A DNA stretch of 39,834 nt from the IMG/VR virus record IMGVR_UViG_2563366858_000008. One strand, 5' to 3'. This stretch comes from a virus. Lineage: Duplodnaviria; Heunggongvirae; Uroviricota; Caudoviricetes. Position numbers and translations under genes: made by a program. Below the pieces are notes generated by a model. It did not search any database. It was not told the DNA's origin and was given only the letters and a program-made list of their open reading frames with translations. Shown here in pieces: positions 1 through 24,849 of this stretch. Positions within the stretch are counted from its first letter, which is position 1; every line of letters begins with the position of its first letter.

Positions 1-516
1 ATGAAATTTAAAAAATGTCTTCTGCCTGTGGCAATGTTAGCGTCATTCACTCTGGCAGGATGCCAGTCAAATGCTGATGATCATGCCGCCGATGTTTATC
101 AAACCGATCAACTGAATACCAAACAAGAAACTAAAACCGTTAATATTATTTCCATTCTTCCCGCAAAAGTTGCCGTAGACAACTCCCAAAATAAACGGAA
201 CGCACAAGCCTTCGGCGCGCTTATTGGTGCAGTCGCTGGCGGTGTAATCGGCCACAACGTGGGGTCTGGCAGCAATTCCGGAACGACGGCAGGTGCAGTT
301 GGCGGCGGAGCTGTTGGCGCGGCAGCGGGTTCTATGGTGAATGATAAAACCTTAGTGGAAGGTGTTTCTTTAACGTATAAGGAAGGCACCAAAGTGTATA
401 CCTCCACCCAGGTGGGTAAAGAGTGCCAGTTTACGACAGGTTTAGCCGTTGTTATTACCACGACGTATAACGAAACGCGTATTCAGCCAAATACGAAATG
501 TCCTGAAAAGAGCTAA
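1..516 (+). CDS. yfgH: Glycine-zipper outer-membrane lipoprotein (YfgH/YcfJ-like); host flank
   Basis: Signal peptide with lipobox LAGC; Gly/Ala-rich GAVAGGVIGH segment typical of YcfJ-type lipoproteins. Symbol from recalled similarity and 171-aa length, not verified. Confidence 0.6.
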   Translation: MKFKKCLLPVAMLASFTLAGCQSNADDHAADVYQTDQLNTKQETKTVNIISILPAKVAVDNSQNKRNAQAFGALIGAVAGGVIGHNVGSGSNSGTTAGAVGGGAVGAAAGSMVNDKTLVEGVSLTYKEGTKVYTSTQVGKECQFTTGLAVVITTTYNETRIQPNTKCPEKS

Positions 517-531
517 TGATCAGGAGGAGTC

Positions 532-1071
532 ATGAAGAAAGTTTTTCTTTGCGCCATCTTAGCCTCCTTAAGCTATCCGGCTATCGCCTCATCATTGCAG
601 GATCAACTCTCGGCTGTCGCAGAAGCGGAACAGCAAGGTAAAAATGAAGAGCAAAGGCAGCATGACGAATGGGTCGCGGAGCGCAACAGGGAAATCCAGC
701 AAGAGAAGCAACGTCGCGCAAACGCCCAGGCCGCGGCTAATAAAAGAGCGGCAACGGCAGCGGCGAATAAGAAAGCTCGTCAGGATAAACTGGACGCCGA
801 AGCCACTGCGGACAAAAAACGCGATCAAAGTTATGAAGATGAGCTACGCAGCTTAGAGATTCAGAAACAAAAACTGGCGCTGGCGAAAGAAGAAGCCCGC
901 GTCAAGCGCGAAAACGAATTTATCGATCAGGAACTGAAGCACAAAGCTGCGCAAACCGATGTGGTGCAATCTGAAGCTGACGCAAACAGAAATATGACTG
1001 AAGGCGGTCGCGATCTGATGAAAAGCGTGGGCAAAGCAGAAGAGAACAAATCGGACAGCTGGTTTAACTAA
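532..1071 (+). CDS. yfgI: Secreted coiled-coil protein (YfgI-like); host flank
   Basis: AGGAGG 6 nt upstream of ATG; signal peptide then charged coiled-coil; 179 aa. Symbol from recalled similarity, not verified. Confidence 0.6.
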   Translation: MKKVFLCAILASLSYPAIASSLQDQLSAVAEAEQQGKNEEQRQHDEWVAERNREIQQEKQRRANAQAAANKRAATAAANKKARQDKLDAEATADKKRDQSYEDELRSLEIQKQKLALAKEEARVKRENEFIDQELKHKAAQTDVVQSEADANRNMTEGGRDLMKSVGKAEENKSDSWFN

Positions 1072-2398: not shown

Positions 2399-2696
2399 GT
2401 TTAGACCTCGATATTTTGAAAATCTGAACAACGTTACCGCGTGTTTTAATAACCGCGGCAAGCATGACAGCGTTGATAATGACCTCAGATAAATCCACAG
2501 CCATTGGCGTGCGTAACCAGATTGCATAGACGACACGAACAGGAATACTGGCCGCAGCAACAATAAGGAAATAAGCAAGCCACCCTCCCCATCTTCGATG
2601 TTGAGAGCCGTTACGCCGGAATGTGACAACGCGAATTGCTATGCCAGTACAAATAACTGCATTGGTGATAAGCAAAAAAAACTCATGCGTTACCAT
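2388..2696 (-). CDS. Small membrane protein in lysis cassette (holin-like or antiholin)
   Basis: 102 aa with 2-3 hydrophobic helices; GGGGAG RBS; overlaps holin stop and ends at endolysin start. Confidence 0.5.
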
Positions 2697-3087
2697 CGTC
2701 TTTTCTCCCCGGAATTAAATCGCGTGGATTGTCTGAACGGTGGTAAAGCCATATACCAATACGCACAGCGACAATTGCTGACACGAATGCGCCAGCAGAG
2801 AAAACAATCCCTTTTTCAAAAGAGTCCTGCGTGATGGTAGGGATCAGGCTGGCTATGCCGATAAGAATTGATGCTGCTGGTTTGTAGAAAAGAAGTCCGC
2901 AGAGAAAGCTAAGCATCGATAAGAGTACGCGACGATGAATTGGGTACTCTACCGCAGAGGTAACAAAAATTACCGCACCAGCCAAAGACCCTAAAGCAAC
3001 CTCAGGAGGAACTCCTGCTATAACCGCAGCAAGAGAACTCATACTAAGCCATTGATTTAAAGATTCGCTGGTTAGCTGAACTGACAT
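2683..3087 (-). CDS. Holin
   Basis: About 134 aa with three predicted TM segments and charged C-terminus; GGTGG RBS before ATG 3087; upstream in-frame GTG at 3096 could give a dual start. Confidence 0.65.
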   Translation of the reverse strand: MSVQLTSESLNQWLSMSSLAAVIAGVPPEVALGSLAGAVIFVTSAVEYPIHRRVLLSMLSFLCGLLFYKPAASILIGIASLIPTITQDSFEKGIVFSAGAFVSAIVAVRIGIWLYHRSDNPRDLIPGRKDDGNA

Positions 3088-3190
3088 AAAGACCACCGTT
3101 TAATGTGCATGAAGCCCCACTTAGTTAGTGAAATAACACACATATTAAACCATATATGAATCACATTTAAACGGATAACTCTTCACGAAA

Positions 3191-3205
3191 TTACCCTATA
3201 GGTGA
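3191..3205. promoter_or_regulatory. Operator-like inverted repeat TTACCCTATAGGTGA (1 mismatch to TTACC-N5-GGTAA) upstream of the acetyltransferase gene
   Basis: 37 bp upstream of ATG 3242 in AT-rich promoter region. Confidence 0.4.
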
Positions 3206-3241
3206 TATCATTGGGTTATCCTATTCAAAACGATAGCAATT

Positions 3242-5182
3242 ATGTCTTATTTAAAATACAGAACAGATATTGATGGGCTGCGAGCTATTGCGGTTTTGCT
3301 GGTCGTGCTGTACCACGCAAACTTTCCTATTCATGGTGGTTTTATTGGTGTAGATGTTTTTTTCGTCATATCAGGATATCTCATTACCAACATCATATAT
3401 AAAGAGACTAAAAGAAATATTTTTTCATTCCTTAATTTTTACAAACGTCGAATAAAGCGATTGCTCCCAGCTTTTGCTTTTCTTCTTTTATTTTTATTTG
3501 TTTACTGCAAATTATATTTGATGCCAGATGAACTTATATCATTCTCTAAAAGTGCGGTATACGCTCTTCTTGGCATAAGCAATTTCTATTTTTTTAGTGG
3601 CACAGGTTACTTTAACTCAACCTCTTATGAACCGCTTTTACACACATGGTCGCTTTCCGTTGAAGAGCAGTTCTACATTGTATGGCCTTTCATCGTTTTC
3701 ATGCTCGCTCGGAACTCAGGGACAAAAAAAGCAATAATAATATCCTCATTACTATTTATTGTATTCCTTGGTATTTCACAGTATGGAGCAGTTAATTATA
3801 AAACAGCAGCGTATCTCCTACTGCCTTTTAGGTTCTTTGAGTTGCTCTCAGGTGCCCTACTTGCTATCTATAAAGATTCAATAACAAAACATCTGCGCCA
3901 CGGTTCTGTAATTTCACTGGTCGGCGTAATGCTGATTGTGTTGAGTTCATTATTTATAAATTCTAACACGCCATTTCCTGGGTTCACTGTTTTGCCTACA
4001 TGTTTAGGCGCTGTAATGCTTATTGCTGCAGGTGACTCATCCAAAAACTTCATTTCTAAAGTGCTGTCTTTAACTCCAGTTGTTTATGTAGGAAGAATTT
4101 CCTACTCTCTTTATTTATGGCACTGGCCTGTACTGATTCTTGCTGAATACAGGGGGATCGATCTTACGGCCTTAAATGCGACGGCGCTCATACTTATCGC
4201 ATTCATCATGGCAAGCATAAGCTATCACTTCGTTGAAAAGCCATTTAGGAAGGATTCGCTGCAATATTTCAGGACTGCATTTATAACCATCTACCTGATA
4301 CCATTAATAGTATCCGCTGCCTATGCAGCGTACATTTTAAAAAATGATGGTTTTCGCGCCAAAAGTTCAGAGTTAGTATCTGAATTAGAAGAGAGAAACG
4401 CGACAAATATTATGCGCCCACAGTGTATTGATAAATTATTTATCGGTAATGTAAATGACTGTCATCTTGGCGTTAATAAAGGCGAAGTAGATGGCGTGCT
4501 TCTTGGTGACTCCTTTGGTAATGCATATGCTTACTTTATTGATGAACTTGCGAAAGATGCTGGAATATCAATAACAGATACTACATATAGCTCAACACCT
4601 GTAATATCAGGAATTTATGTGCAGGATATCAGGAATAAGATATCTGACATAGATGCTAACCTGATAATGACATATACAAAAAACAGGCTGGAGTATGCAG
4701 CAAAACAAAAGTTCGCGATAATTTCCGTTTTTTGGGATCAGTACGGGCCACAAAATAATTACTTCCGTATCTTCGATAAAAACGGTGACGTATCGGAGAA
4801 TGCTTACCAGTTGCAATCTGAAGCAATAAAATATCTGCTGTCCAATGGCGTGAAAGTTTACATCATTGCAAGACCTTACCAGTCTATTGGCCCTGCTGCG
4901 ATAAACAAACTGCGCCAAATTAAGCTGCGGCATGGGGATGTAACTACTGAAAAATATGAATACGGCGTAAAGAAAGATGATCGGATAGAATACAAGTTAA
5001 AGCAGGAGTTCCCTCAGATAACGCTAATCGATCCTAACGATGTACTTTGCCACAAAGGGGAATGTGATGCCATCGTGGATGGAAAGATCATTTTCAGAAC
5101 TGATGGTTCACACCTGAATGCTGTTGGAGCAAAAAAAATCGGGGAAGAGTATTTGAAAAACTACGCAAACCCATTTCGATAA
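3242..5182 (+). CDS. O-antigen O-acetyltransferase, acyltransferase-3 membrane domain plus SGNH domain (OafA/Oac-like); lysogenic conversion
   Basis: N-terminal multi-TM domain with conserved YRxDIDGLRAIAV...H motif; C-terminal GDSFG (SGNH) motif; 646 aa; AT-rich relative to neighbours. Confidence 0.85.
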   Translation: MSYLKYRTDIDGLRAIAVLLVVLYHANFPIHGGFIGVDVFFVISGYLITNIIYKETKRNIFSFLNFYKRRIKRLLPAFAFLLLFLFVYCKLYLMPDELISFSKSAVYALLGISNFYFFSGTGYFNSTSYEPLLHTWSLSVEEQFYIVWPFIVFMLARNSGTKKAIIISSLLFIVFLGISQYGAVNYKTAAYLLLPFRFFELLSGALLAIYKDSITKHLRHGSVISLVGVMLIVLSSLFINSNTPFPGFTVLPTCLGAVMLIAAGDSSKNFISKVLSLTPVVYVGRISYSLYLWHWPVLILAEYRGIDLTALNATALILIAFIMASISYHFVEKPFRKDSLQYFRTAFITIYLIPLIVSAAYAAYILKNDGFRAKSSELVSELEERNATNIMRPQCIDKLFIGNVNDCHLGVNKGEVDGVLLGDSFGNAYAYFIDELAKDAGISITDTTYSSTPVISGIYVQDIRNKISDIDANLIMTYTKNRLEYAAKQKFAIISVFWDQYGPQNNYFRIFDKNGDVSENAYQLQSEAIKYLLSNGVKVYIIARPYQSIGPAAINKLRQIKLRHGDVTTEKYEYGVKKDDRIEYKLKQEFPQITLIDPNDVLCHKGECDAIVDGKIIFRTDGSHLNAVGAKKIGEEYLKNYANPFR

Positions 5183-5185
5183 GGA

Positions 5186-5203
5186 GTGCGCCTCGCGGCG
5201 CAC
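5186..5203. terminator. GC-rich stem-loop between convergent acetyltransferase and tailspike genes
   Basis: GTGCGCC-tcgc-GGCGCAC; no clear U-tract on either strand. Confidence 0.4.
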
Positions 5204-5212
5204 ATGCCTAAA

Positions 5213-7444
5213 TTAAGACTTCTTAAGGTACGACCATGTAACAGTGGTCGTACCGCTGCTGGTAATAGATATATACCTTTCTGATACGCTTGCTGTGAGG
5301 AACGCCGCAGTCTTCAGCGTCTGGATCATTGCTGTCGTACCATCATAAATTACCAGGAATGAAATCGCGTAGTTTGCACCTCCGCCAGAAACCCACACGT
5401 TAACATCATAAACTCCCTCAGAGTTTGGCAAAGTAAATAGCACGGACGCTACGTTAGCGTTGACCGATTTAGTACCCTTGTCGGTATAGACCGTGGGCAC
5501 CTGAAGCCCATTGGCATTTTTATTTTCTACATACCCACCAGCAATAACGCCTGACGTGATGCAGTTCGTGTAGTTAACGTTGCCGGTGCTCACAGTAGAG
5601 ATGGTTGGAGTTCCTCCGGCCGGAGCCTGGAACCGGCAGTTATCTGCATCAACCTGCGAGGTTACATCTGTGTGGATGAATGATGGATAGCCGGCCATTC
5701 CTTCAAAAGCGATCGGCGTACCATCGAAGCTATCTTTGCAGTTCAGCATCTTCACGCGAGATCCATTTATCGCGCGGTAAAAATCAACGATACCATTAGA
5801 ACCACCGAAAGATGTTTTCAACTTGTTGCCAGAACCAACTGCCCCGACTATCGAAACGGTTGAATTATCGAATGTCATAAACGCCACCTCAAGTGCTGAG
5901 TTGTTGTTTATAACGTTCGCCTCACCATCAAAACCGGAGATAAGAAATCCGTGACAATTCGAAAGGTAAATAGCAGACTGACCGATAGACTCGTTGGAGT
6001 TTACTGTCATCTTATCTGCTGCGCAGTTCGTCATCTGCCCTGAAAGGAGGTTTGTTAAATACCACGCGCATACACCCCCCATTACATAGCAGGACTCATA
6101 ATGGATCGTCGTGCCGGTGTTTTTGTAGAAACCACCGCGACTGCGACGCACCCATACATGCTCAAGCCTAGACATATAATTTCCAGAGTCGTCATATACT
6201 CCCCACCATGCCCCATCTATATCGACGTTTTTAATCCTTATCAAACCCGGCGATGTCTCACCACCATTTATAAGAATGCCAATTTTACCGTCGTTTGTGG
6301 CAGCATCTGTTGGATAGTCAATTCCATTCTGATCATAGAAAATATATAAATTCTCAATATTTCCTGAAGCAAAAGACTCTCCATAATGGAAGCACGCTTT
6401 ATTTCCAATTACGGAAATAAAAGTCCCTGATCTGTTTATTATGTTATTACACTCACCGTATACAGTTGCAGATGTATTCATCTTAATAGTGTCATTAACA
6501 AAATATGCATTTCCACCTGGAATAAACACATTTCGTCCAGTGTTAATAGCTGCCTGTATTCCTGCGTAGTCAAAAGACTGGGTAAGCGATGTCACAAATG
6601 GATATACCATTTGTGCTGCTGTCAATGTTGAAAACACTTCGCTTAACTGATGAAGTTTTCCATCGCCTGTAGCACCAAAATCTTTTGCACTAATAAAATC
6701 GCTGTTTTTATCATGCTGTGTACGAATAAATGAACTAATGAAAGGTTGCTTCACCGAGATCAGAGCATCGCCTTTCCCGTCCTCGCCGCTGGCCAACTGG
6801 TTGAATACATCAGCCGCCGTTCCTGAAGGCACAGGGAACGGAACGGGCTTACCGTTGGCGATGCCGATTATGCTTCCTTCAAGTTGAGCGAGAGGTGGCA
6901 GCGGATCGATATAAGAATCAGGAACACGGATTGTATGGTCGATATTCGATAAAACCGTACTGTCCACATAATTCTTTGTGGATGCATCCTGCGGGTTTAC
7001 CGGGTCTTTCAGGTTTCGAATATAGTTGTTCAGCGCGTTATAATAATTTGCCACGAATGACGGCTTGCGCAGCGCCAAGCTAAACCAACTTCGAACCTGC
7101 TGGATCAGCATCGTTAGCTTATCAAAAGCATCCTCATGCACTTCTGCAAAGAACTTCCCCTGATTACGCAAATCAGTTTCCTGCGTAACCGGGAGCTCTC
7201 GTGATATAGAAATCTGGTAACCGTTAGCTAACGCCTTCGACAGAATTACATTACCGCCGTTATATCCACCAGCCCCAGTGACAGTGTAATCAGTATCAAG
7301 AGCCAGCACAGCGATATTTTCGTCAAGGTCAACCACCTGCACTACCAGATCAGATTCCTTGAAAACCCTAAAGGTATAAGGGAATGAAGTCGTAACGCCA
7401 TTGCCTGTGTATTCGTTGTGGTCAACTTCGGTTGAGACCGTCAT
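5213..7444 (-). CDS. Tailspike protein
   Basis: 743 aa; N-terminal MTVSTEVDHNEYTGNGVTTSFPYTF resembles the particle-binding domain of epsilon15-type tailspikes (recalled); central region has beta-helix-like repeats; GGAG RBS. Confidence 0.75.
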   Translation of the reverse strand: MTVSTEVDHNEYTGNGVTTSFPYTFRVFKESDLVVQVVDLDENIAVLALDTDYTVTGAGGYNGGNVILSKALANGYQISISRELPVTQETDLRNQGKFFAEVHEDAFDKLTMLIQQVRSWFSLALRKPSFVANYYNALNNYIRNLKDPVNPQDASTKNYVDSTVLSNIDHTIRVPDSYIDPLPPLAQLEGSIIGIANGKPVPFPVPSGTAADVFNQLASGEDGKGDALISVKQPFISSFIRTQHDKNSDFISAKDFGATGDGKLHQLSEVFSTLTAAQMVYPFVTSLTQSFDYAGIQAAINTGRNVFIPGGNAYFVNDTIKMNTSATVYGECNNIINRSGTFISVIGNKACFHYGESFASGNIENLYIFYDQNGIDYPTDAATNDGKIGILINGGETSPGLIRIKNVDIDGAWWGVYDDSGNYMSRLEHVWVRRSRGGFYKNTGTTIHYESCYVMGGVCAWYLTNLLSGQMTNCAADKMTVNSNESIGQSAIYLSNCHGFLISGFDGEANVINNNSALEVAFMTFDNSTVSIVGAVGSGNKLKTSFGGSNGIVDFYRAINGSRVKMLNCKDSFDGTPIAFEGMAGYPSFIHTDVTSQVDADNCRFQAPAGGTPTISTVSTGNVNYTNCITSGVIAGGYVENKNANGLQVPTVYTDKGTKSVNANVASVLFTLPNSEGVYDVNVWVSGGGANYAISFLVIYDGTTAMIQTLKTAAFLTASVSERYISITSSGTTTVTWSYLKKS

Positions 7445-7933: not shown

Positions 7934-7936
7934 GAC

Positions 7937-8350
7937 TTATAAAGATGACTGATATTTTACAACTCTGTTCATGGCATCTTTTTTCACCGAGCTGATATCA
8001 GTTCTTATTTTGGCTTCGTCATTACTGTTTATCATGCTATTAACTTTTTGCACAGACATGCCGTTTCTTTCAGCCATTGCACATACAGCAGCATCGTATG
8101 AAGAACTCGCTGCGATGGATATAACCTTGTTACACTCAAACACAGCACCTTCAGCAATATCAGATGCCGATGATGCTGACTTGGTATAAGTCTTGACGTA
8201 GTGATCAATACAACTATCCTTCGCCGTCTTGGCAAGAGAAAAATCCATTTTAACCTTGTCGCAATATGCCTTATCAACACCGTCATAAACATCATAGGAT
8301 GTCGAGCAAGCGGATATCAAAAATACCGATAACAGCAATAATTCCTTCAT
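7937..8350 (-). CDS. Lipoprotein moron (possible superinfection exclusion)
   Basis: Signal peptide with lipobox ISAC; 137 aa; AT-rich; between ejection-protein genes and tailspike. Confidence 0.6.
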   Translation of the reverse strand: MKELLLLSVFLISACSTSYDVYDGVDKAYCDKVKMDFSLAKTAKDSCIDHYVKTYTKSASSASDIAEGAVFECNKVISIAASSSYDAAVCAMAERNGMSVQKVNSMINSNDEAKIRTDISSVKKDAMNRVVKYQSSL

Positions 8351-8359
8351 TGTTGTTCC

Positions 8360-10834
8360 TTATTGCGGAGTGACATCCTGAGGTCGCCACCAGTATGTCT
8401 GGTTAAACTCTTTCTTCGAACGTTGCTCCATTTTACGCAAATAGCCTGGTGAAAAATACTCCTGCATCTGGTTAAAGATCATGTGATCGAGAGCCGCCTT
8501 TAAGTACCAGAGATTCGCACCTGGCATCAGACCTTTCCCCAGCTTAACCAGATCACCACCAGTCTGCTCATTCTTCCCTTCCACAGCATTTAACGGTATG
8601 CCCTGAGCAATCTTCACTACGTCATCAACCAGACCAGCTACCGGGCCAAGCATCGACGCCAGCGCGCCGCTTCCGTACCTAGTGTGATCTGACAATAAAA
8701 AGTCACCGTAAAGGCCAAGACCACCACCTTTCAGTAGAGCACCAAGCCAAAATTTAGCAGCATCTTCTCCTGTCATCTCGCGATGATTACGACCAGACGC
8801 AAGGTCGTTAAGTTGCTGAGACAAAGCGCCAAGAATGGTCGTGCTGGCAATAAACGTCGCAATATATGCCGCACGCCCACCAGCAGACGGCATACCCATA
8901 GCGCGTGACCAGTGACGCATAACCACCGAGATAGGGAACGATTTAAACAGGAAAACACTTCTCGTTAATTCACCTTTCCATGTTCCACGCTGAATACCAG
9001 AACCGGTTATCAGTTGCTCACGTGCTCCCGGTGTAATAACAGCCATATCAACTTCTTCAGTTACGGCACCGAGCAGTTTACGCATTGCCTCAAATTTCAC
9101 GCGTTCAGGCTCACCAAGATGTTTAACTGCTGAATCAGGGATACGCATAATGCTTTCCGGTGTCAGCATCGTATTATTACCGTTCCCCCAGTCCTCCTGT
9201 TGCGCCAGCTTCCATACGCTCCAGTCTGTGTCAGTAATCCCTTTGCTTTTCAGGATACGAAAATCAGAGTCATCGAGGCTACGAAGGTCTGGTGTCCGTG
9301 ACACTACTTCTCCCAGGCTTCCCATCATGGTTACGCCATAGGCGCGCTTGTGCGCATCTGACCATGCTGTAAGCCCACTGGCACGCATTACCGCCGTTGC
9401 CGCCCAACGAGACACTGACGGCCCCATATTATCCATCGCCCAGCGGTTAACGCTGCCAAGTAGAGATTCCATCGCCAGACCAGCGCGGCGCGCCCGCGCA
9501 AGTTCTGTACGGTTCGTTGGGTCCATAGCTTCAAGCTGGTTGCGAAATAACTGGTTCATTGGAAGGTTGGTCACCTTCGCAGACAGATACATGGTTCCAA
9601 GATCAGAGAACGATGACAGCAACGCGGATCCGAGTCTGCTGGCAACCAGCCAGTTGCGGATAGTGTCAGACCATCGCGCGATGTGCGGATTCGCTACAGG
9701 CTGTGTCTTTCCGGAAATAAAGTTGTACAGATTCTCTGTGTTGTTCGCCAGCCGCTCGACTTTACCGGTTTTACTCGGGTTAGCTGTTGCCGTTTCTGCC
9801 TTAACCTGATCAAGAAGGGAGCGGAAAACATGATCGGGGTTTGGACCATATGTTTCCACCAGAGCAATATCTTTACTGATACCTTCCAGGTGACCGACCA
9901 TGATTTCCCATAGAGAGCGATCACCATAAAGTTGTTGATATTGGAGATAGGAATCTGCATCTTTGAAATGTATCTGTCGTGATGCATTACCACGGTTAGC
10001 ACGTGCGCCGGAAATTCGCATTCCGGTATCAGTAAGCTTATTCAGCCCACCAGTAGCGATCGTGTTATAAGCCTCTCCAAGAAATGCAGACAACTCGGCA
10101 TCGTTCATCAGTTGTCCATCGGCTCGGGTATAATATTTGCGATCCAGCTTACCTATAACATCGCCAACCCACTTATCCTTTGATACCGCCCCAACCTTTT
10201 CCATAGAATGATGTTGAGGGATCCCCCAGTTTTCGAGATAGCCAATGTCCCCACCAGCATCATTAAACCGGCGGCGCAGCAGCTCTGTAACTTCTCTCCA
10301 CGCCTTAGCACCTTTTCTTGCTTTAGCATTGCCAGTATTTTGCCCCCGCATTTCATATACCAGGTCACGTACGCCCGCTTCATCTTCAAACAGACCAAAA
10401 AAGCGAGGATCAACTGCTTCGAATGCCTCCTGCAATTGACTCAATGCATAATCACGGGTGGCTTTTGTTCTGGATTCAACAGAGAGGAAATTAGATTTAC
10501 CGTCTGCATTAAAAGCTATAGTACGGTTAAGAGCGCCAAGTTTACCATCAGCCCCTTGATAGCTATTGATAAATTTATCCAATCTCTGACGCGCGGCTAT
10601 AGTGAGAGCCACACGACGTTTCTTTAATGCCGCTTCTCGCTGTAATTCTTCAGATGCCAATTGTGCTGCTCGATATAGCCGCTCTGATTCGGAAAGTTGT
10701 CGCCACGACATCGGGTCATCACGAGCAATGGAGCGCATATTTCGATAAATGCGGTCTTCAATGTTCTGTATTTCTCGCGCCGTTAACGTGCGCTGCGCCG
10801 CCTGCTGGACCGCTTGTATACATTCCTGTCTCAT
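8360..10834 (-). CDS. Large internal virion / DNA-ejection protein
   Basis: 824 aa; last of a block of large co-directional genes between head and tailspike, as in T7/epsilon15-type podoviruses. Confidence 0.5.
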   Translation of the reverse strand: MRQECIQAVQQAAQRTLTAREIQNIEDRIYRNMRSIARDDPMSWRQLSESERLYRAAQLASEELQREAALKKRRVALTIAARQRLDKFINSYQGADGKLGALNRTIAFNADGKSNFLSVESRTKATRDYALSQLQEAFEAVDPRFFGLFEDEAGVRDLVYEMRGQNTGNAKARKGAKAWREVTELLRRRFNDAGGDIGYLENWGIPQHHSMEKVGAVSKDKWVGDVIGKLDRKYYTRADGQLMNDAELSAFLGEAYNTIATGGLNKLTDTGMRISGARANRGNASRQIHFKDADSYLQYQQLYGDRSLWEIMVGHLEGISKDIALVETYGPNPDHVFRSLLDQVKAETATANPSKTGKVERLANNTENLYNFISGKTQPVANPHIARWSDTIRNWLVASRLGSALLSSFSDLGTMYLSAKVTNLPMNQLFRNQLEAMDPTNRTELARARRAGLAMESLLGSVNRWAMDNMGPSVSRWAATAVMRASGLTAWSDAHKRAYGVTMMGSLGEVVSRTPDLRSLDDSDFRILKSKGITDTDWSVWKLAQQEDWGNGNNTMLTPESIMRIPDSAVKHLGEPERVKFEAMRKLLGAVTEEVDMAVITPGAREQLITGSGIQRGTWKGELTRSVFLFKSFPISVVMRHWSRAMGMPSAGGRAAYIATFIASTTILGALSQQLNDLASGRNHREMTGEDAAKFWLGALLKGGGLGLYGDFLLSDHTRYGSGALASMLGPVAGLVDDVVKIAQGIPLNAVEGKNEQTGGDLVKLGKGLMPGANLWYLKAALDHMIFNQMQEYFSPGYLRKMEQRSKKEFNQTYWWRPQDVTPQ

Positions 10835-10839
10835 TTAAT

Positions 10840-12642
10840 TTAACCTCTCAAGAAACACGCCACAGCAACATCAAACAGGCTGGAATCCTGTATTGCCTGC
10901 TCACTTTCCCTGTTCGCTTCATCCAGTACTTCACGCGCACTGCGCGATTGTGGATTACCATCATCATCCAGTACGGTGATTATCATGTCCGGAGATTCAA
11001 GCAGCGAGTCTTCAGCTATACGCAGATCAATATCTCCTGCCGGATCTGCCATCATTTTTTGTTCTGCCTGTTGCAATATTTTATCAGGCTCAAAAGGAGC
11101 TACTTCGTCTGGCGTCCTGACCTCTGCTGTTTTATAGAATGAAACAGCCTGAGCATTAAGTTCACTTTCTGCCTGCTGTCTCCGAGCCAGTTCTGCTCGA
11201 GCTTCAAAAAACTGACCGCCAGGCTCGTGCGGTGTCAACGCGTTACGGGAAAATTCCAGGCGTTCTTGTGCCTGCCGGATTCGTTGATCAATATCGCGAA
11301 GTCTGGCCTGTTTATCTGATCGAGCACGAGACAAAGCTTTACCGCTACCGGTTAGCTCTTCTGCAAGAATTTGTGCACGCTGTTCAGTGAGATTTTCAAT
11401 AATTCGTTGGCTATTAGCGATTTCAGACTGGTAAACCTGTCTATCTCCACGCGGCAAAAGCTGCGCGGCCTGTTCTTCAAGCAACCGATTTTCTATAGCG
11501 CGCGCCGTTACTCCATCATCTACAGATGACAGAGCCTCATTAACTGCCTGAGACAGCAGACTCTTGCGCCCTGGAATTTCACTGAAAGATGCAGACTCAA
11601 CAATGCTCGCAACGTCTACAGGTCTCCCCTGGCTAACATCAGACATAGCTTTTCGCAGAGCCTGAATGTGAGAATTGCGCGAAAGCACGTTGATCGGCAC
11701 GCCGGGCGCAATATCAATTTCAGCATGATGAGCGGCATTCGCCGCCAGTGCAGCATCGATATCAACTGGTGAAAAATTTGGTGCGCTTGTAGACTCGCCG
11801 CGAGAGTTAATAAATCTGCCGACACCACCAAACGCCACCCCAAGAACAGCATCAATAGCAATTGCCTGTCGATCCAACACATCATACTGGTTAGCCATTT
11901 CGCTATAGCCACCATCACGAAGCGTTTTTGCAGTAAGCCCACGCTGTGCCATACCGAACGCAATATTTGTACCTGCGGCATAGGCAATATCTGGCGTTGC
12001 ACGTACTGCTGTTGCTGCGGCGCGTCGCACTGAACTTTCACCCGTCCGCGCAAGCTGAGCCGCCACACCTTCCGCCAGCGCACCACCAGCACGTAACCCG
12101 AGGCTCATAGGGATCAGTGTTCCGGCACCAGCAGTAATACCCTGCACTAATCCCGCTTCCTGCGCCGTCCTGAAATCAACCCCCTGTGCTGTCAGCCGTT
12201 CAAACTCAGAAAAACCCTGTAGAGAAGTTACCGCCGCAGCACCTCCGACCGGACCACCGAGCGTTGTACCGACAACAGCCTGCCCGCCCATATCGAACAA
12301 CCCATGAAGGACCTGCCCGGCGGTTCCGGTTGTCGCGGCATCAGGCGTCAGCCGCTTAACCTGCTGCTCTGCTAGTTTTCTCTGCTCAGCAATGTATGAA
12401 ACTGAAGTGTCATTGAGCGAGGTGTTTTCGTTAACAAACTGAGCAATCGGGGATACGATTTTATCCATCCCTGCCCATAGCAACTGGTCTGGCTTTGCCA
12501 CCAGCCCGGAGTACAAACCAGACAATGCCGCTCCTACAGCATTGTCGAAAAAACCAACATCGCTGTTAAAGCCAGCTGGATTTGATGTTGCTTCGTCAAG
12601 CTGCTGATTCTGGTTTACTGGATTAAGGCCAAAGTAACTCAT
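10840..12642 (-). CDS. Internal virion / ejection protein, Gly/Ala-rich
   Basis: 600 aa; start overlaps upstream stop (ATGA); no tape-measure context. Confidence 0.45.
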   Translation of the reverse strand: MSYFGLNPVNQNQQLDEATSNPAGFNSDVGFFDNAVGAALSGLYSGLVAKPDQLLWAGMDKIVSPIAQFVNENTSLNDTSVSYIAEQRKLAEQQVKRLTPDAATTGTAGQVLHGLFDMGGQAVVGTTLGGPVGGAAAVTSLQGFSEFERLTAQGVDFRTAQEAGLVQGITAGAGTLIPMSLGLRAGGALAEGVAAQLARTGESSVRRAAATAVRATPDIAYAAGTNIAFGMAQRGLTAKTLRDGGYSEMANQYDVLDRQAIAIDAVLGVAFGGVGRFINSRGESTSAPNFSPVDIDAALAANAAHHAEIDIAPGVPINVLSRNSHIQALRKAMSDVSQGRPVDVASIVESASFSEIPGRKSLLSQAVNEALSSVDDGVTARAIENRLLEEQAAQLLPRGDRQVYQSEIANSQRIIENLTEQRAQILAEELTGSGKALSRARSDKQARLRDIDQRIRQAQERLEFSRNALTPHEPGGQFFEARAELARRQQAESELNAQAVSFYKTAEVRTPDEVAPFEPDKILQQAEQKMMADPAGDIDLRIAEDSLLESPDMIITVLDDDGNPQSRSAREVLDEANRESEQAIQDSSLFDVAVACFLRG

Positions 12643-24772: not shown

Positions 24773-24849
24773 GTGGCATTAGCTCAGTTGGACAGAGCAA
24801 CCGCCTTCTAAGCGGTTGGTCGCAGGTTCGAATCCTGCATGCCACGCCA
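24773..24849 (+). tRNA. tRNA-Arg (anticodon UCU), phage-encoded
   Basis: Full cloverleaf: acceptor GTGGCAT/ATGCCAC, D-arm GCTC/GAGC, anticodon stem ACCGC/GCGGT with loop CTTCTAA, T-arm GCAGG-TTCGAAT-CCTGC, discriminator G and encoded CCA. Confidence 0.95.

Follow-up and report, generated by a model that had tools for sequence, protein, structure and literature searches.

Epsilon15, the prototype of the genus Uetakevirus, encodes an O-antigen polymerase (gp21) and a polymerase inhibitor (gp22) downstream of its tailspike gene gp20, and converts Salmonella group E1 hosts via a changed polymerisation linkage. For phiV10, a Uetakevirus of E. coli O157:H7 (Perry et al., 2009; NC_007804), the GenBank note on its Oac protein states that it 'acetylates the host O-antigen; functions in superinfection immunity', and a further paper provides an experimental precedent for this protein (PMC11854483). 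GtrC of phage BTP1, together with the tailspike of that phage, offers a second experimental precedent (PMC4413052): this OafB-type enzyme of Salmonella Typhimurium ST313 shields the O-antigen receptor from the putative endorhamnosidase tailspike and blocks infection. Finally, the essential residues of the chromosomal Salmonella enzyme OafA are available from a mutagenesis table (PMC7448272).

The window analysed here, a DNA stretch of 39,834 nucleotides, represents a Uetakevirus (epsilon15/phiV10-like) prophage adjoining yfgI in E. coli. Its order of yfgH, yfgI and then phage lysis genes is that annotated for the E. coli AF5 locus, which is 100% identical to the window. The insertion site is common to SCU-116, HCP4S3_I4 and MFDS1019527; since the integrase is site-specific, this common site is uninformative on the independence of the carriers. 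In this temperate epsilon15/phiV10-like (Uetakevirus) prophage, which is probably specific for E. coli O2, the region of interest is probably the cassette for serotype conversion and host recognition; the following features are relevant to it:

1-1071, + strand: host chromosome flank (yfgH, yfgI), with the prophage end just past it
2683-3096, - strand: membrane protein associated with the holin (epsilon15 gp23-like); conserved, and bounds the variable cassette on the left
3182-3211, + strand: candidate sigma-70 promoter of oac with an extended -10 (TTCACG, 18 nt spacer, TGaTATCAT)
3213-6962, strandless: exchangeable cassette comprising oac, the hairpin and tailspike residues about 161-743 (blastn breakpoints)
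3242-5182, + strand: oac, 646-aa AT3-SGNH acyltransferase, putative O2 O-antigen O-acetyltransferase (Pfam, phrog_6705, motifs)
3266-4213, + strand: AT3 membrane domain of Oac
about 4268-4342, + strand: 11th transmembrane helix of Oac
4448-5155, + strand: periplasmic SGNH domain of Oac
4654-6288, strandless: recombination tract common with the diverged relative L008 (identity contrast)
5186-5203, strandless: GC-rich hairpin GTGCGCC-TCGC-GGCGCAC between the stop codons (ViennaRNA fold)
5213-7444, - strand: tailspike, 743 aa
6965-7444, - strand: N-terminal particle-binding anchor of the tailspike (aa 1-160)
tailspike aa 161-247: low-confidence neck
5216-6703, - strand: receptor-binding beta-helix plus C-terminal beta-sandwich of the tailspike (aa 248-743)

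As the preliminary description had stated, oac and the tailspike gene are convergent, and oac is more AT-rich than the surrounding phage genes. The two stop codons are 30 bp apart. The GC content of oac is 0.382 (GC3 0.362) compared with 0.496 in the rest of the prophage, corresponding to z = -5.3 against 18 non-overlapping windows elsewhere, and in a scan of the whole 39.8 kb the lowest-GC 1941-bp window begins at 3041. The intergenic region upstream of oac has a GC content of 0.331, and the tailspike body is just mildly low (0.447). Furthermore, AGA or AGG serves for 12 of the 25 Arg codons in oac, which together with its strong AT-richness makes the gene look foreign. These properties would suit a reading in which the neighbourhood of the tailspike is a permissive insertion site for AT-rich morons at the end of the late operon, with no coupling between the two genes, or in which oac is silent or decaying. 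In the same direction, an IS66 element fills the slot in one related phage, and an IS5 element is located between the promoter and oac in one host.

The candidate promoter is the sole promoter-like site in the 3097-3241 spacer and lies inside the conserved backbone, directly upstream of the variable cassette. It matches the consensus weakly, and shuffled sequence gave more sites than the real sequence in the promoter scan, so that by itself the call carries little weight. In phiV10, Tyrion and L008 the -10 block is kept despite their differing oac genes, and similarity collapses directly after it. At the opposite end of oac, the 60-nt stretch that contains the hairpin (5171-5230) folds in ViennaRNA with -18.4 kcal/mol on the + strand and -18.0 kcal/mol on the - strand. 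The terminator scan made no call at 5186-5203 because the hairpin is without a T tail; it is likely a bidirectional terminator or RNA-end stabiliser lacking the T-run.

From its sequence, the product of oac is an AT3-SGNH carbohydrate O-acetyltransferase that is intact and keeps all catalytic motifs. The ORF matches Pfam Acyl_transf_3 with 129.7 bits (cut-off 31) and the AT3-fused SGNH domain with 96.5 bits (cut-off 27), and the protein matches phrog_6705 'O-antigen acetylase'. Its motifs comprise R14-X10-H25, GGFIGVD32-38, FFVISG40-45, R70xxR73, GDS422-424 and D621xxH624, whose residues are invariant among 46 homologues, except for H624 (at least 90% of sequences) and D621 (not listed). Every residue known as essential in OafA is retained. 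This retention of the catalytic residues argues against a decaying moron, as do the ORF, intact in all eight carrier genomes, and the comparison with the 85%-identical L008 copy, in which amino-acid differences of 0.08-0.21 stand beside four-fold-site differences of 0.28-0.63, a pattern indicating that oac is under purifying selection and selectively maintained.

The AF2 model of Oac has a mean pLDDT of 89.5, and its best PDB fold match is 6SE1, the periplasmic domain of the LPS acetyltransferase OafB, followed in second to fifth place by PatB peptidoglycan O-acetyltransferases; a phmmer search of Oac against PDB sequences gave no match at E up to 0.01. The acceptor sugar is not discriminated by sequence and fold, and Oac could instead acetylate another envelope glycan (peptidoglycan, enterobacterial common antigen, capsule or colanic acid), its adjacency to the tailspike being unrelated to the receptor. 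The PatB matches fit this alternative, AT3-SGNH proteins act on many glycans (PMC9558356), and the nearest non-phage homologues (73-77% identity) are chromosomal genes in Enterobacter and Citrobacter that adjoin an MBOAT/AlgX pair, outside any O-antigen cluster. We nevertheless consider it quite unlikely: the top fold match is an LPS enzyme, phage O-antigen acetylases (BTP1 GtrC, g341c) share 36-41% identity with the AT3 domain, and both the slot contents of related phages and the carrier hosts, described below, point to the O-antigen.

The tailspike had been proposed to combine an epsilon15-like N-terminus with a different receptor-binding body, and both halves of that proposal are borne out. 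The N-terminus is 70% identical to epsilon15 gp20 over 226 aa and 74% identical to the phiV10 tail fiber over 222 aa, and past about residue 220 similarity to epsilon15 and phiV10 is absent, the body being an unrelated beta-helix. A Pfam search of the 743-aa ORF returned no match. Structure prediction of the body, which had been suggested as a check, was carried out with AF2 and gave a beta-helix with mean pLDDT per 10-residue block of mostly 76-97; the top Foldseek matches are the tailspikes phi297 gp61, Sf6 and LKA1 gp49, and the body is 51.6% identical to the tailspike of phage 611R6. At the DNA level, homology resumes at 6963-6967 for phiV10, TL-2011b and PAS61, which is about tailspike residue 160, and at 6959 for Tyrion. 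In this tailspike, a beta-helix body that has been swapped follows a conserved anchor (aa 1-160).

On the other side, backbone homology to phiV10, TL-2011b and PAS61 spans the holin-associated gene, whose product matches Pfam Phage_holin_8 and the holin family phrog_198, and ends at 3158-3212. Between these borders, determined by blastn against phiV10, PAS61, TL-2011b and Tyrion, the cassette is swapped as one block between Uetakevirus backbones that are otherwise 88-98% identical. The tail-to-tail arrangement of oac and the tailspike gene makes them move and recombine together. The tract common with L008 takes in the 3' parts of both genes, from about aa 471 onwards in oac and from about aa 385 onwards in the tailspike gene, along with the hairpin that separates them, and has a nucleotide identity of 0.90 within and 0.72 outside (maximum chi-square 225) and a four-fold-site divergence of 0.33 within and 0.63 outside (Fisher p = 1.3e-12).

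An O-antigen-modifying gene occupies the slot between the holin-associated gene and the tailspike in epsilon15, phiV10, Tyrion, PAS61 and TL-2011b. In a survey of 70 related IMG/VR loci, the slot was occupied in 47 and empty in 23, the latter number being compatible with a mere insertion site for morons. Among the 35 slot-protein clusters, however, 26 are AT3 acyltransferases, and the non-AT3 clusters include one GT2, one Wzy_C, one SASA and two DUF6056; with at least two further O-antigen enzymes (the Wzy-type polymerase and the GT2 glycosyltransferase), the set is far from random morons, and these same two enzymes speak against a glycan other than the O-antigen. Tailspike type and slot gene co-vary across the 70 loci, slot content being consistent in 14 of 16 multi-member tailspike clusters even with differing backbones, which tells against both alternatives and leaves the moron reading very improbable. 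The arrangement of slot and tailspike is the norm for Uetakevirus and not peculiar to this window.

The cassette is present in 8 of 5426 complete E. coli genomes. All eight carriers have the O2/O50 wzy gene, compared with 133 of the 5426 overall (hypergeometric p about 1e-13, without correction for phylogeny), and O2 is the shared feature identified among the hosts, again in disfavour of another envelope glycan. The carrier prophages of AF5, HCP4S3_I4 and SCU-116 differ among themselves in neighbouring accessory genes, and the carriers involve at least two O2 gene-cluster alleles, since four of the eight are missing among the O2-cluster matches listed (60, all at least 99.6% identical to the AF5 cluster). 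In favour of O2, the His-to-Arg change published for O50 is absent from the host fdtB; as a point against acetylation, passages on O2/O50 in a review of E. coli O-antigens mention no O-acetyl group. In independent agreement with the host link, the entries 'SCU-116_Prophage_RBP, Uetakevirus, O2' and '611R6_RBP, O2' appear in Pas et al. (2023; PMC10408124), the O2 assignment of the SCU-116 tailspike having been made in silico by prophage-host and HGT logic. One carrier host is a bloodstream isolate. Interest in the cassette stems chiefly from the place of O2 among the ExPEC vaccine serotypes.

The preliminary description had read the gene pair as a serotype-conversion module, and every sequence-level prediction of that reading holds (intact Oac, slot, swapped tailspike, O2/O50-wzy hosts and co-variation). 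Most likely, the tailspike recognises O2 and, by analogy with the precedents above, Oac acetylates the O2 antigen, whereby lysogens would resist the same phage. In the virion, the tailspike trimer would gain access to the cell surface by binding and probably cleaving the rhamnose-rich O2 polysaccharide. In the lysogen, transcription of oac would run rightwards from its own promoter, opposite to that of the late and lysis genes. Acetyl-CoA in the cytoplasm would supply the acetyl group, which the AT3 domain would carry through the inner membrane and the SGNH domain would attach, on the periplasmic side, to a sugar of the O2 repeat unit, most likely a rhamnose. Once acetylated, the O-antigen would be a poor substrate for this tailspike, which would block superinfection by the same and similar phages. 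As in BTP1, acetylation may also keep tailspike that is set free upon induction from attacking the O-antigen of the lysogen itself, and it is conceivable, if unlikely, that Oac acetylates O2 mainly for such protection from the sibling tailspike, or for serum resistance or altered antibody recognition. In the BTP1 system, the O-antigen becomes shorter when GtrC is lost, which deletion of the tailspike gene compensates (PMC4413052); the bloodstream origin of one host and the status of O2 as a major ExPEC serotype (PMC9516715) would suit a role in serum. These roles are compatible with superinfection exclusion and are not separated from it by sequence, and both BTP1 GtrC and phiV10 Oac block infection too.

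Compared with the known systems, the superinfection-exclusion cassette proposed here resembles that of epsilon15, whose conversion genes lie in this slot too, are likewise convergent with the tailspike gene and precede gp23, holin and endolysin; it differs in relying on acetylation. With Salmonella OafA/OafB, Oac has in common the domain architecture, the essential residues and the disulfide-pair cysteines, whereas OafA is without tailspike linkage. BTP1 GtrC is likewise prophage-encoded and of the same AT3-SGNH class (36% identity over residues 1-428), but belongs to a P22-like (Lederbergvirus) backbone, acts on a Salmonella O-antigen and aligns poorly by sequence in its SGNH part. The SCU-116 prophage carries this very cassette (99.5% DNA identity); the main text of Pas et al. 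(2023; PMC10408124) contains 'acetyl' solely in a reference title and therefore covers the tailspike, not the adjacent acetyltransferase. Phage phiV10 belongs to the same genus, with backbone flanks 88-98% identical, oac in the same slot and convergent with the tailspike, the same conserved -10 block upstream and a common N-terminal anchor. Its Oac, by contrast, is an AT3-only protein of 338 aa, the receptor-binding bodies are unrelated and the host antigen is O157 instead of O2. Orthology of the two Oac proteins was rejected (BLASTP E = 0.45). The cassette adds a further case to an arrangement that is already well known.

The oac gene and the tailspike gene face each other as the two large convergent open reading frames of the window, and their stop codons are separated by 30 bp. 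Together with their surroundings they are laid out as follows:

Window 1-1071: host genes yfgH and yfgI, according to the AF5 annotation
Window 3182-3211, plus strand: candidate oac promoter, with a weak -35 element at 3182 and an extended -10 element, TGaTATCAT, at 3203-3211
Window 3242-5182, plus strand: oac, encoding the 646-aa acyltransferase Oac
Window 5186-5203: hairpin GTGCGCC-TCGC-GGCGCAC, between the stop codons
Window 5213-7444, minus strand: tailspike gene, encoding 743 aa
Window 7935-8356: second variable spot, with an open reading frame at 7937-8350 (minus strand, 137 aa, phrog_8691, unknown function)

The preliminary description had drawn attention to an AT-rich acyltransferase-3/SGNH gene convergent with a tailspike, and this observation is confirmed by the layout and strands of the reading frames, the Pfam matches and the composition of oac. 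The GC content of oac is 0.382 (GC3 0.362) and that of its upstream spacer 0.331, against 0.496 in the rest of the prophage; the lowest-GC window of 1941 bp in all 39.8 kb begins at 3041, and with z = -5.3 relative to non-overlapping windows elsewhere in the stretch oac is a compositional outlier. AGA or AGG serve as 12 of its 25 arginine codons, and because of this codon usage a prophage-borne tRNA-Arg with the anticodon UCU, which reads AGA (window 24773-24849, plus strand), could aid the translation of oac and other phage genes. Escherichia coli AF5, isolated in the UK from a blood culture, has the oac-tailspike region at 100% identity, and seven further complete E. coli chromosomes have it at 99.5%. 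In AF5, yfgH/yfgI are followed by a cassette of phage lysis genes, by the acyltransferase and tailspike genes, and by a complete set of podovirus structural genes. The nearest named phages are phiV10, TL-2011b, PAS61, ZX5, Tyrion and epsilon15-like Salmonella phages, all of the genus Uetakevirus.

Oac consists of an Acyl_transf_3 domain (PF01757, residues 9-324, 129.7 bits against a cut-off of 31) and an AT3-fused SGNH domain (PF19040, residues 403-638, 96.5 bits against a cut-off of 27). The AF2 model, with a mean pLDDT of 89.5, comprises a helical membrane domain and an alpha/beta domain at 408-640, preceded by an extra, eleventh transmembrane helix in the form of a long helix at 343-367; in the predicted topology, the SGNH domain is periplasmic. 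In Salmonella OafA, mutagenesis has identified as essential R/K-X10-H in TMH1, GG-F/Y-XGV-D, FFXISG, RXXR, a loop serine and a glutamate after TMH10, and the SGNH catalytic triad is provided by the GDS serine of block I and the DxxH of block V (PMC7448272). Oac retains all residues found essential in OafA, and its catalytic motifs are intact: R14-X10-H25, GGFIGVD at 32-38, FFVISG at 40-45, R70xxR73, S113-N114 and E332 in the AT3 domain, and G422-D423-S424 and D621-G-S-H624 for the triad. Among 46 Oac homologues of 36-85% identity, R14, H25, G32, G33, D38, R70, R73, E332 and the GDS at 422-424 are invariant, as are the cysteine pairs C395/C407 and C603/C608, which match the OafA disulfides; H624 is conserved in at least 90%, and D621 is not among the listed conserved positions.

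A fold search was required for Oac, since a sequence-only search of the PDB with it gave no match. The best PDB match by Foldseek is 6SE1 (E = 1.6e-5, target TM 0.59, 279 columns), the periplasmic part of OafB, an LPS acetyltransferase of Salmonella, and PatB peptidoglycan acetyltransferases rank next. The AT3 domain is 36-41% identical to the BTP1 GtrC and g341c O-antigen acetylases, and the full-length protein is 28-30% identical to the O-antigen acetylases of D3, Tyrion and PAS61. By its domains, motifs and modeled fold, Oac is thus a predicted AT3-SGNH carbohydrate O-acetyltransferase of the OafA/OafB/GtrC-BTP1 type, and context and host association suggest an O-antigen sugar as the substrate that it acetylates. 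In PHROGs v4, phrog_10852 covers residues 352-646 only, as a separate family, an extent which suggests truncated oac gene calls in some phage records. The closest non-phage relatives (73-77% identity) are chromosomal genes of Enterobacter asburiae and Citrobacter freundii:

L009 6001-7935: Oac homologue of E. asburiae
L010-L012: Oac homologues of C. freundii

These genes adjoin an MBOAT/AlgX-like pair, in C. freundii also near cls and opp, and in one C. freundii genome the homologue is split into open reading frames of 89 and 553 aa. They are a plausible source pool of oac and are uninformative on its substrate. A linked pair of Oac and tailspike homologues on a C. freundii P22-like phage was considered and dropped, as the Oac homologue is a chromosomal gene elsewhere in that genome.

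The tailspike carries an epsilon15-like N-terminus on a different body, as had been proposed. Residues 1-226 are 70% identical to epsilon15 gp20 over 226 aa, and identity to the phiV10 protein is 74% over 222 aa and about 90% in the first ~160 residues, while beyond residue ~220 there is no similarity to the tailspike of either phage. Pfam finds no domain in the 743-aa protein, and a PDB profile search with it matches at the neck and the helix start only; in PHROGs v4, phrog_8649 is a family that matches this very tailspike over its whole length (743 of 743 positions), annotated 'unknown function'. Structure prediction of the body (residues 248-743), which had been suggested as a check, yields an all-beta model with strands from about residue 305 to 741 and a mean pLDDT per 10-residue block of mostly 76-97, compatible with a parallel beta-helix that has a beta-sandwich at its C-terminal end. 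Almost all of its best 50 Foldseek matches are phage tailspikes or depolymerases, led by Pseudomonas phi297 gp61, the Sf6 endorhamnosidase and LKA1 gp49 (E = 5e-10 to 7e-9). In AF5, the gene lies between the structural genes and the lysis cassette, as in phiV10 and epsilon15. Anchor, predicted beta-helix body and genome position thus characterize the protein as a Uetakevirus tailspike, of putative trimeric state and putative enzyme activity. Four of its acidic residues, D418, D477, E508 and D571, are invariant and are candidates for a catalytic role.

Homologous bodies (40-55% identity) are also found behind other N-terminal adaptors, of which there are at least three kinds, namely the P22 head-binding domain, PF18668 and the T7 tail-fibre N-terminus, and also occur in lytic phages, e.g. 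611R6, SU57 and JeanPiccard; this mixing is the usual modular exchange of receptor-binding domains. In L013, the locus of a C. freundii P22-like prophage (8001-11057), a P22 head-binding N-terminus is combined with a body 55% identical to that of the window, and a 353-aa AT3-only acyltransferase directly follows this tailspike at the prophage end. The L013 arrangement thus places a tailspike-acyltransferase pairing on another backbone and with another class of acetylase.

The limits of the replaceable unit can be read from the comparison with phiV10, TL-2011b and PAS61, whose DNA homology (87-98% in the flanks) ends at window 3158-3212 and restarts at 6963-6967, which corresponds to tailspike residue ~160. 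According to these breakpoints, the acetylase, the hairpin and the receptor-binding part of the tailspike form one replaceable block of ~3.75 kb. The direction of oac is opposite to that of the late genes. The extended -10 of its candidate promoter is common to phiV10, Tyrion and L008, a diverged relative with the same gene pair, all of which carry a slot gene in the same direction, and similarity collapses directly after it. Promoter and terminator scans gave no statistically convincing signal, and since the promoter scan was not above chance, the oac promoter stays a candidate. An imperfect inverted repeat at window 3190-3206, ATTACC-N5-GGTGAT, extends over the spacer and -10 of this candidate. 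Its flanks recur in phiV10, Tyrion and L008, and the repeat may serve as an operator or belong to a leftward control region of the lysis genes. In the pig isolate HCP4S3_I4, the IS5-family element ISKpn26 is inserted at window 3216-3219 (about 4124-5318 of its locus, L017), 5-8 bp downstream of the predicted -10, where it separates the candidate promoter from the start codon of oac and may silence or re-wire oac expression. The hairpin has no T-run, and the 60-nt stretch around it reaches about -18 kcal/mol on either strand. The second variable spot is located just upstream of the tailspike gene, and its content is different in phiV10, TL-2011b and SCU-116, where Bro-N/antirepressor genes, a YafO toxin or others are present.

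The slot that oac occupies, between the holin-associated gene and the tailspike gene, is used throughout the genus. In phiV10, it is occupied by oac, which is flanked by the genes for the holin-associated membrane protein and the tail fiber and convergent with the latter; its GenBank note reads 'acetylates the host O-antigen; functions in superinfection immunity'. A convergent 'O-antigen acetylase' of the AT3-SGNH class fills the slot in Tyrion, and epsilon15 has its O-antigen polymerase and polymerase-inhibitor conversion genes there, convergent with tailspike gp20, whereas the O-acetyltransferases of PAS61 (host O146) and TL-2011b (host O103) are co-directional with the tailspike. The window and these five named relatives thus have in common a slot in which a modifying gene is directly linked to the receptor-binding gene. 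In a survey biased to close relatives of the window's anchor, 80 IMG/VR loci were retrieved by the tailspike anchor, and in the 70 that carry both anchor and holin-associated gene the slot either contains an open reading frame of at least 200 aa (47 loci) or is empty (23 loci). Slot reading frames are convergent with the tailspike in 37 cases and co-directional in 14. At 60% identity, the slot proteins fall into 35 clusters, 26 of them AT3, six of these with SGNH, while the nine non-AT3 clusters include two of DUF6056 and one each of GT2, Wzy-type polymerase, SASA esterase and IS66 transposase. The tailspike bodies form 44 clusters, and of the 16 that have at least two members, 14 show no variation in slot content, a consistency which persists where the upstream backbone differs or cannot be aligned. 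A slot gene beside the tailspike is the rule in Uetakevirus.

The hosts of the cassette share one O-antigen. AF5 has an O-antigen cluster with O2/O50 wzx and wzy, a cluster type present in 136 of 5426 complete genomes. A concatenated query of 1.5 kb across the oac-tailspike junction and the O2 wzy gene gave 141 matches in 133 records. Both parts were present in exactly eight of these, the cassette carriers, and none of the 5426 complete genomes had the cassette without the O2/O50 wzy. The presence of this wzy in eight of eight carriers, compared with 133 of 5426 genomes overall, corresponds to a hypergeometric p of ~1e-13, uncorrected for phylogeny. Some of the carriers were obtained from humans (blood, stool, a rectal swab) and others from animals, namely calf, pig and monkey. 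The carriers are not a single clone, since the prophages of AF5, HCP4S3_I4 and SCU-116 mutually differ in neighboring accessory genes and four of the eight carriers are not among the 60 O2-cluster matches listed, all at least 99.6% identical to the AF5 cluster.

O50 as the host antigen was rejected in favor of O2. The O50 passages of an E. coli O-antigen review distinguish it from O2 by a His-to-Arg change in FdtB; the host FdtB is without this change, V364A being its single difference from the FdtB of a serotyped O2 strain. Pas et al. (2023; PMC10408124) list 'SCU-116_Prophage_RBP, Uetakevirus, O2' and '611R6_RBP, O2', and SCU-116 is one of the eight carriers, so that the O2 assignment of this tailspike is already published as an in silico prediction; the adjacent acetylase is not discussed in the main text of that paper, where 'acetyl' occurs in a reference title only. 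The tailspike type and the O-serogroup of the lysogens thus match in all eight carriers, in agreement with the published assignment. The fdtC-like acetyltransferase of the O2 cluster is annotated in RefSeq as two pseudogene fragments in every O2 genome inspected:

L007 39026-39472: fdtC-like fragments in an O2 O-antigen cluster
L014, L015 and L016, about 935-1381: fdtC-like fragments in further O2 O-antigen clusters

As a prophage-linked clue this split was discarded, since a cassette-free O2 strain and a serotyped O2:K2:H1 strain have the same annotation. The split is thus generic at the level of annotation and seems to reflect either a systematic annotation fault or a gene that is genuinely split throughout O2. 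In the O2:K2:H1 strain, wzy is frameshifted.

The O2 association extends to a second Uetakevirus module, in which a 751-aa tailspike is convergent with a 619-aa AT3-SGNH protein:

L019 2777-6927: second module in E. coli MFDS1019527, at the same yfgI site, also found in FT130

By the concatenated-query approach, this module occurs only in O2/O50-wzy genomes (133 records, none without wzy); two different acetylases are thus paired with related tailspikes on one antigen. Type A is represented by the 646-aa Oac of the window and type B by the 619-aa protein, which is 28% identical to it, with tailspike bodies 41% identical. In L008, a 39.4-kb metagenomic phage contig, Oac and tailspike are each 85% identical to those of the window. 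Strict co-divergence of the two proteins, which this equality would fit, is rejected by the 41% and 28% of the second module, and the slot gene also differs within two of 16 tailspike clusters, so the linkage exists at the level of the cassette rather than as clock-like co-evolution. Nucleotide identity between the window and L008 is about 0.72 overall and 0.90 over window 4654-6288, which includes the 3' parts of both genes together with the hairpin between them. Differences at four-fold degenerate sites amount to 0.33 inside this tract and 0.63 outside (p = 1.3e-12), which points to a more recently shared recombination tract rather than protein constraint alone. Owing to the tail-to-tail layout, one exchange can carry the distal halves of both genes. 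Between oac and its L008 counterpart, amino-acid differences are 0.08-0.21 and synonymous differences 0.28-0.63, which indicates purifying selection.

Based on what is known of AT3-SGNH enzymes (PMC7448272, PMC9558356) and on the precedents for receptor masking by BTP1 GtrC (PMC4413052) and by phiV10 Oac (PMC11854483), we infer acetyl transfer and exclusion. In the lysogen, the AT3 pore of Oac would take up acetyl groups supplied by acetyl-CoA, and its SGNH domain, in the periplasm, would pass them to the O2 repeat unit. Acetylated O2 would then be poorly bound or cleaved by this tailspike, so that superinfection would be excluded and the lysogen's own LPS perhaps protected. BTP1 GtrC/OafB-type enzymes acetylate rhamnose. 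With such relatives, the Sf6 fold match and the L-rhamnoses of the O2 unit, one may guess, and only guess, that rhamnose is the acceptor and the tailspike an endorhamnosidase; several L-rhamnose residues are described in the O2 passages of the E. coli O-antigen review, which do not mention an O-acetyl epitope.

It is possible, although we consider it somewhat less than probable, that roughly 6-11% of O2 strains, including bloodstream isolates, display a so far unrecognized, prophage-made O-acetylated O2 variant produced by two non-orthologous enzymes, each with its O2 tailspike and possibly acting at differing positions, and that the 3' halves of the paired genes recombine as one tract. Types A and B may acetylate different O2 positions in an arms race between phages and between phage and host. 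Glycoconjugate vaccines against ExPEC are directed at a few main serotypes, O2 among them, and one of the carriers was cultured from blood. If the prophage acetylates O2, a subset of O2 strains would have an additional epitope, of relevance to ExPEC glycoconjugate vaccines that contain O2, to serotyping and to phage therapy; it could affect antibody recognition, serotype determination and the range of strains infected by O2-specific therapeutic phages, 611R6 for instance. Whether carrier O2 strains display the O-acetylated antigen is therefore worth testing. The cassette also offers a ready-made predicted O2-binding tailspike for diagnostics. For the study of acceptor choice by AT3-SGNH enzymes, two acetylases and related tailspikes directed at a single antigen make a clean natural comparison.

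The observation of the preliminary description stands, and so does its interpretation as a probable case of serotype conversion. The phiV10 Oac has 338 aa and lacks an SGNH domain, whereas the Oac of the window has 646 aa and possesses one. As BLASTP detects no homology between the latter and phiV10 Oac (YP_512280; best E = 0.45), orthology is ruled out, and the two are positional and functional analogues, the function being putative. Tailspike-linked O-antigen modification is the founding property of the phages related to epsilon15, and phiV10, Sf6 and BTP1 are well-documented cases. The proposed mechanism is thus an ordinary one, and the gene pair of the window would represent the canonical conversion cassette of its phage genus.
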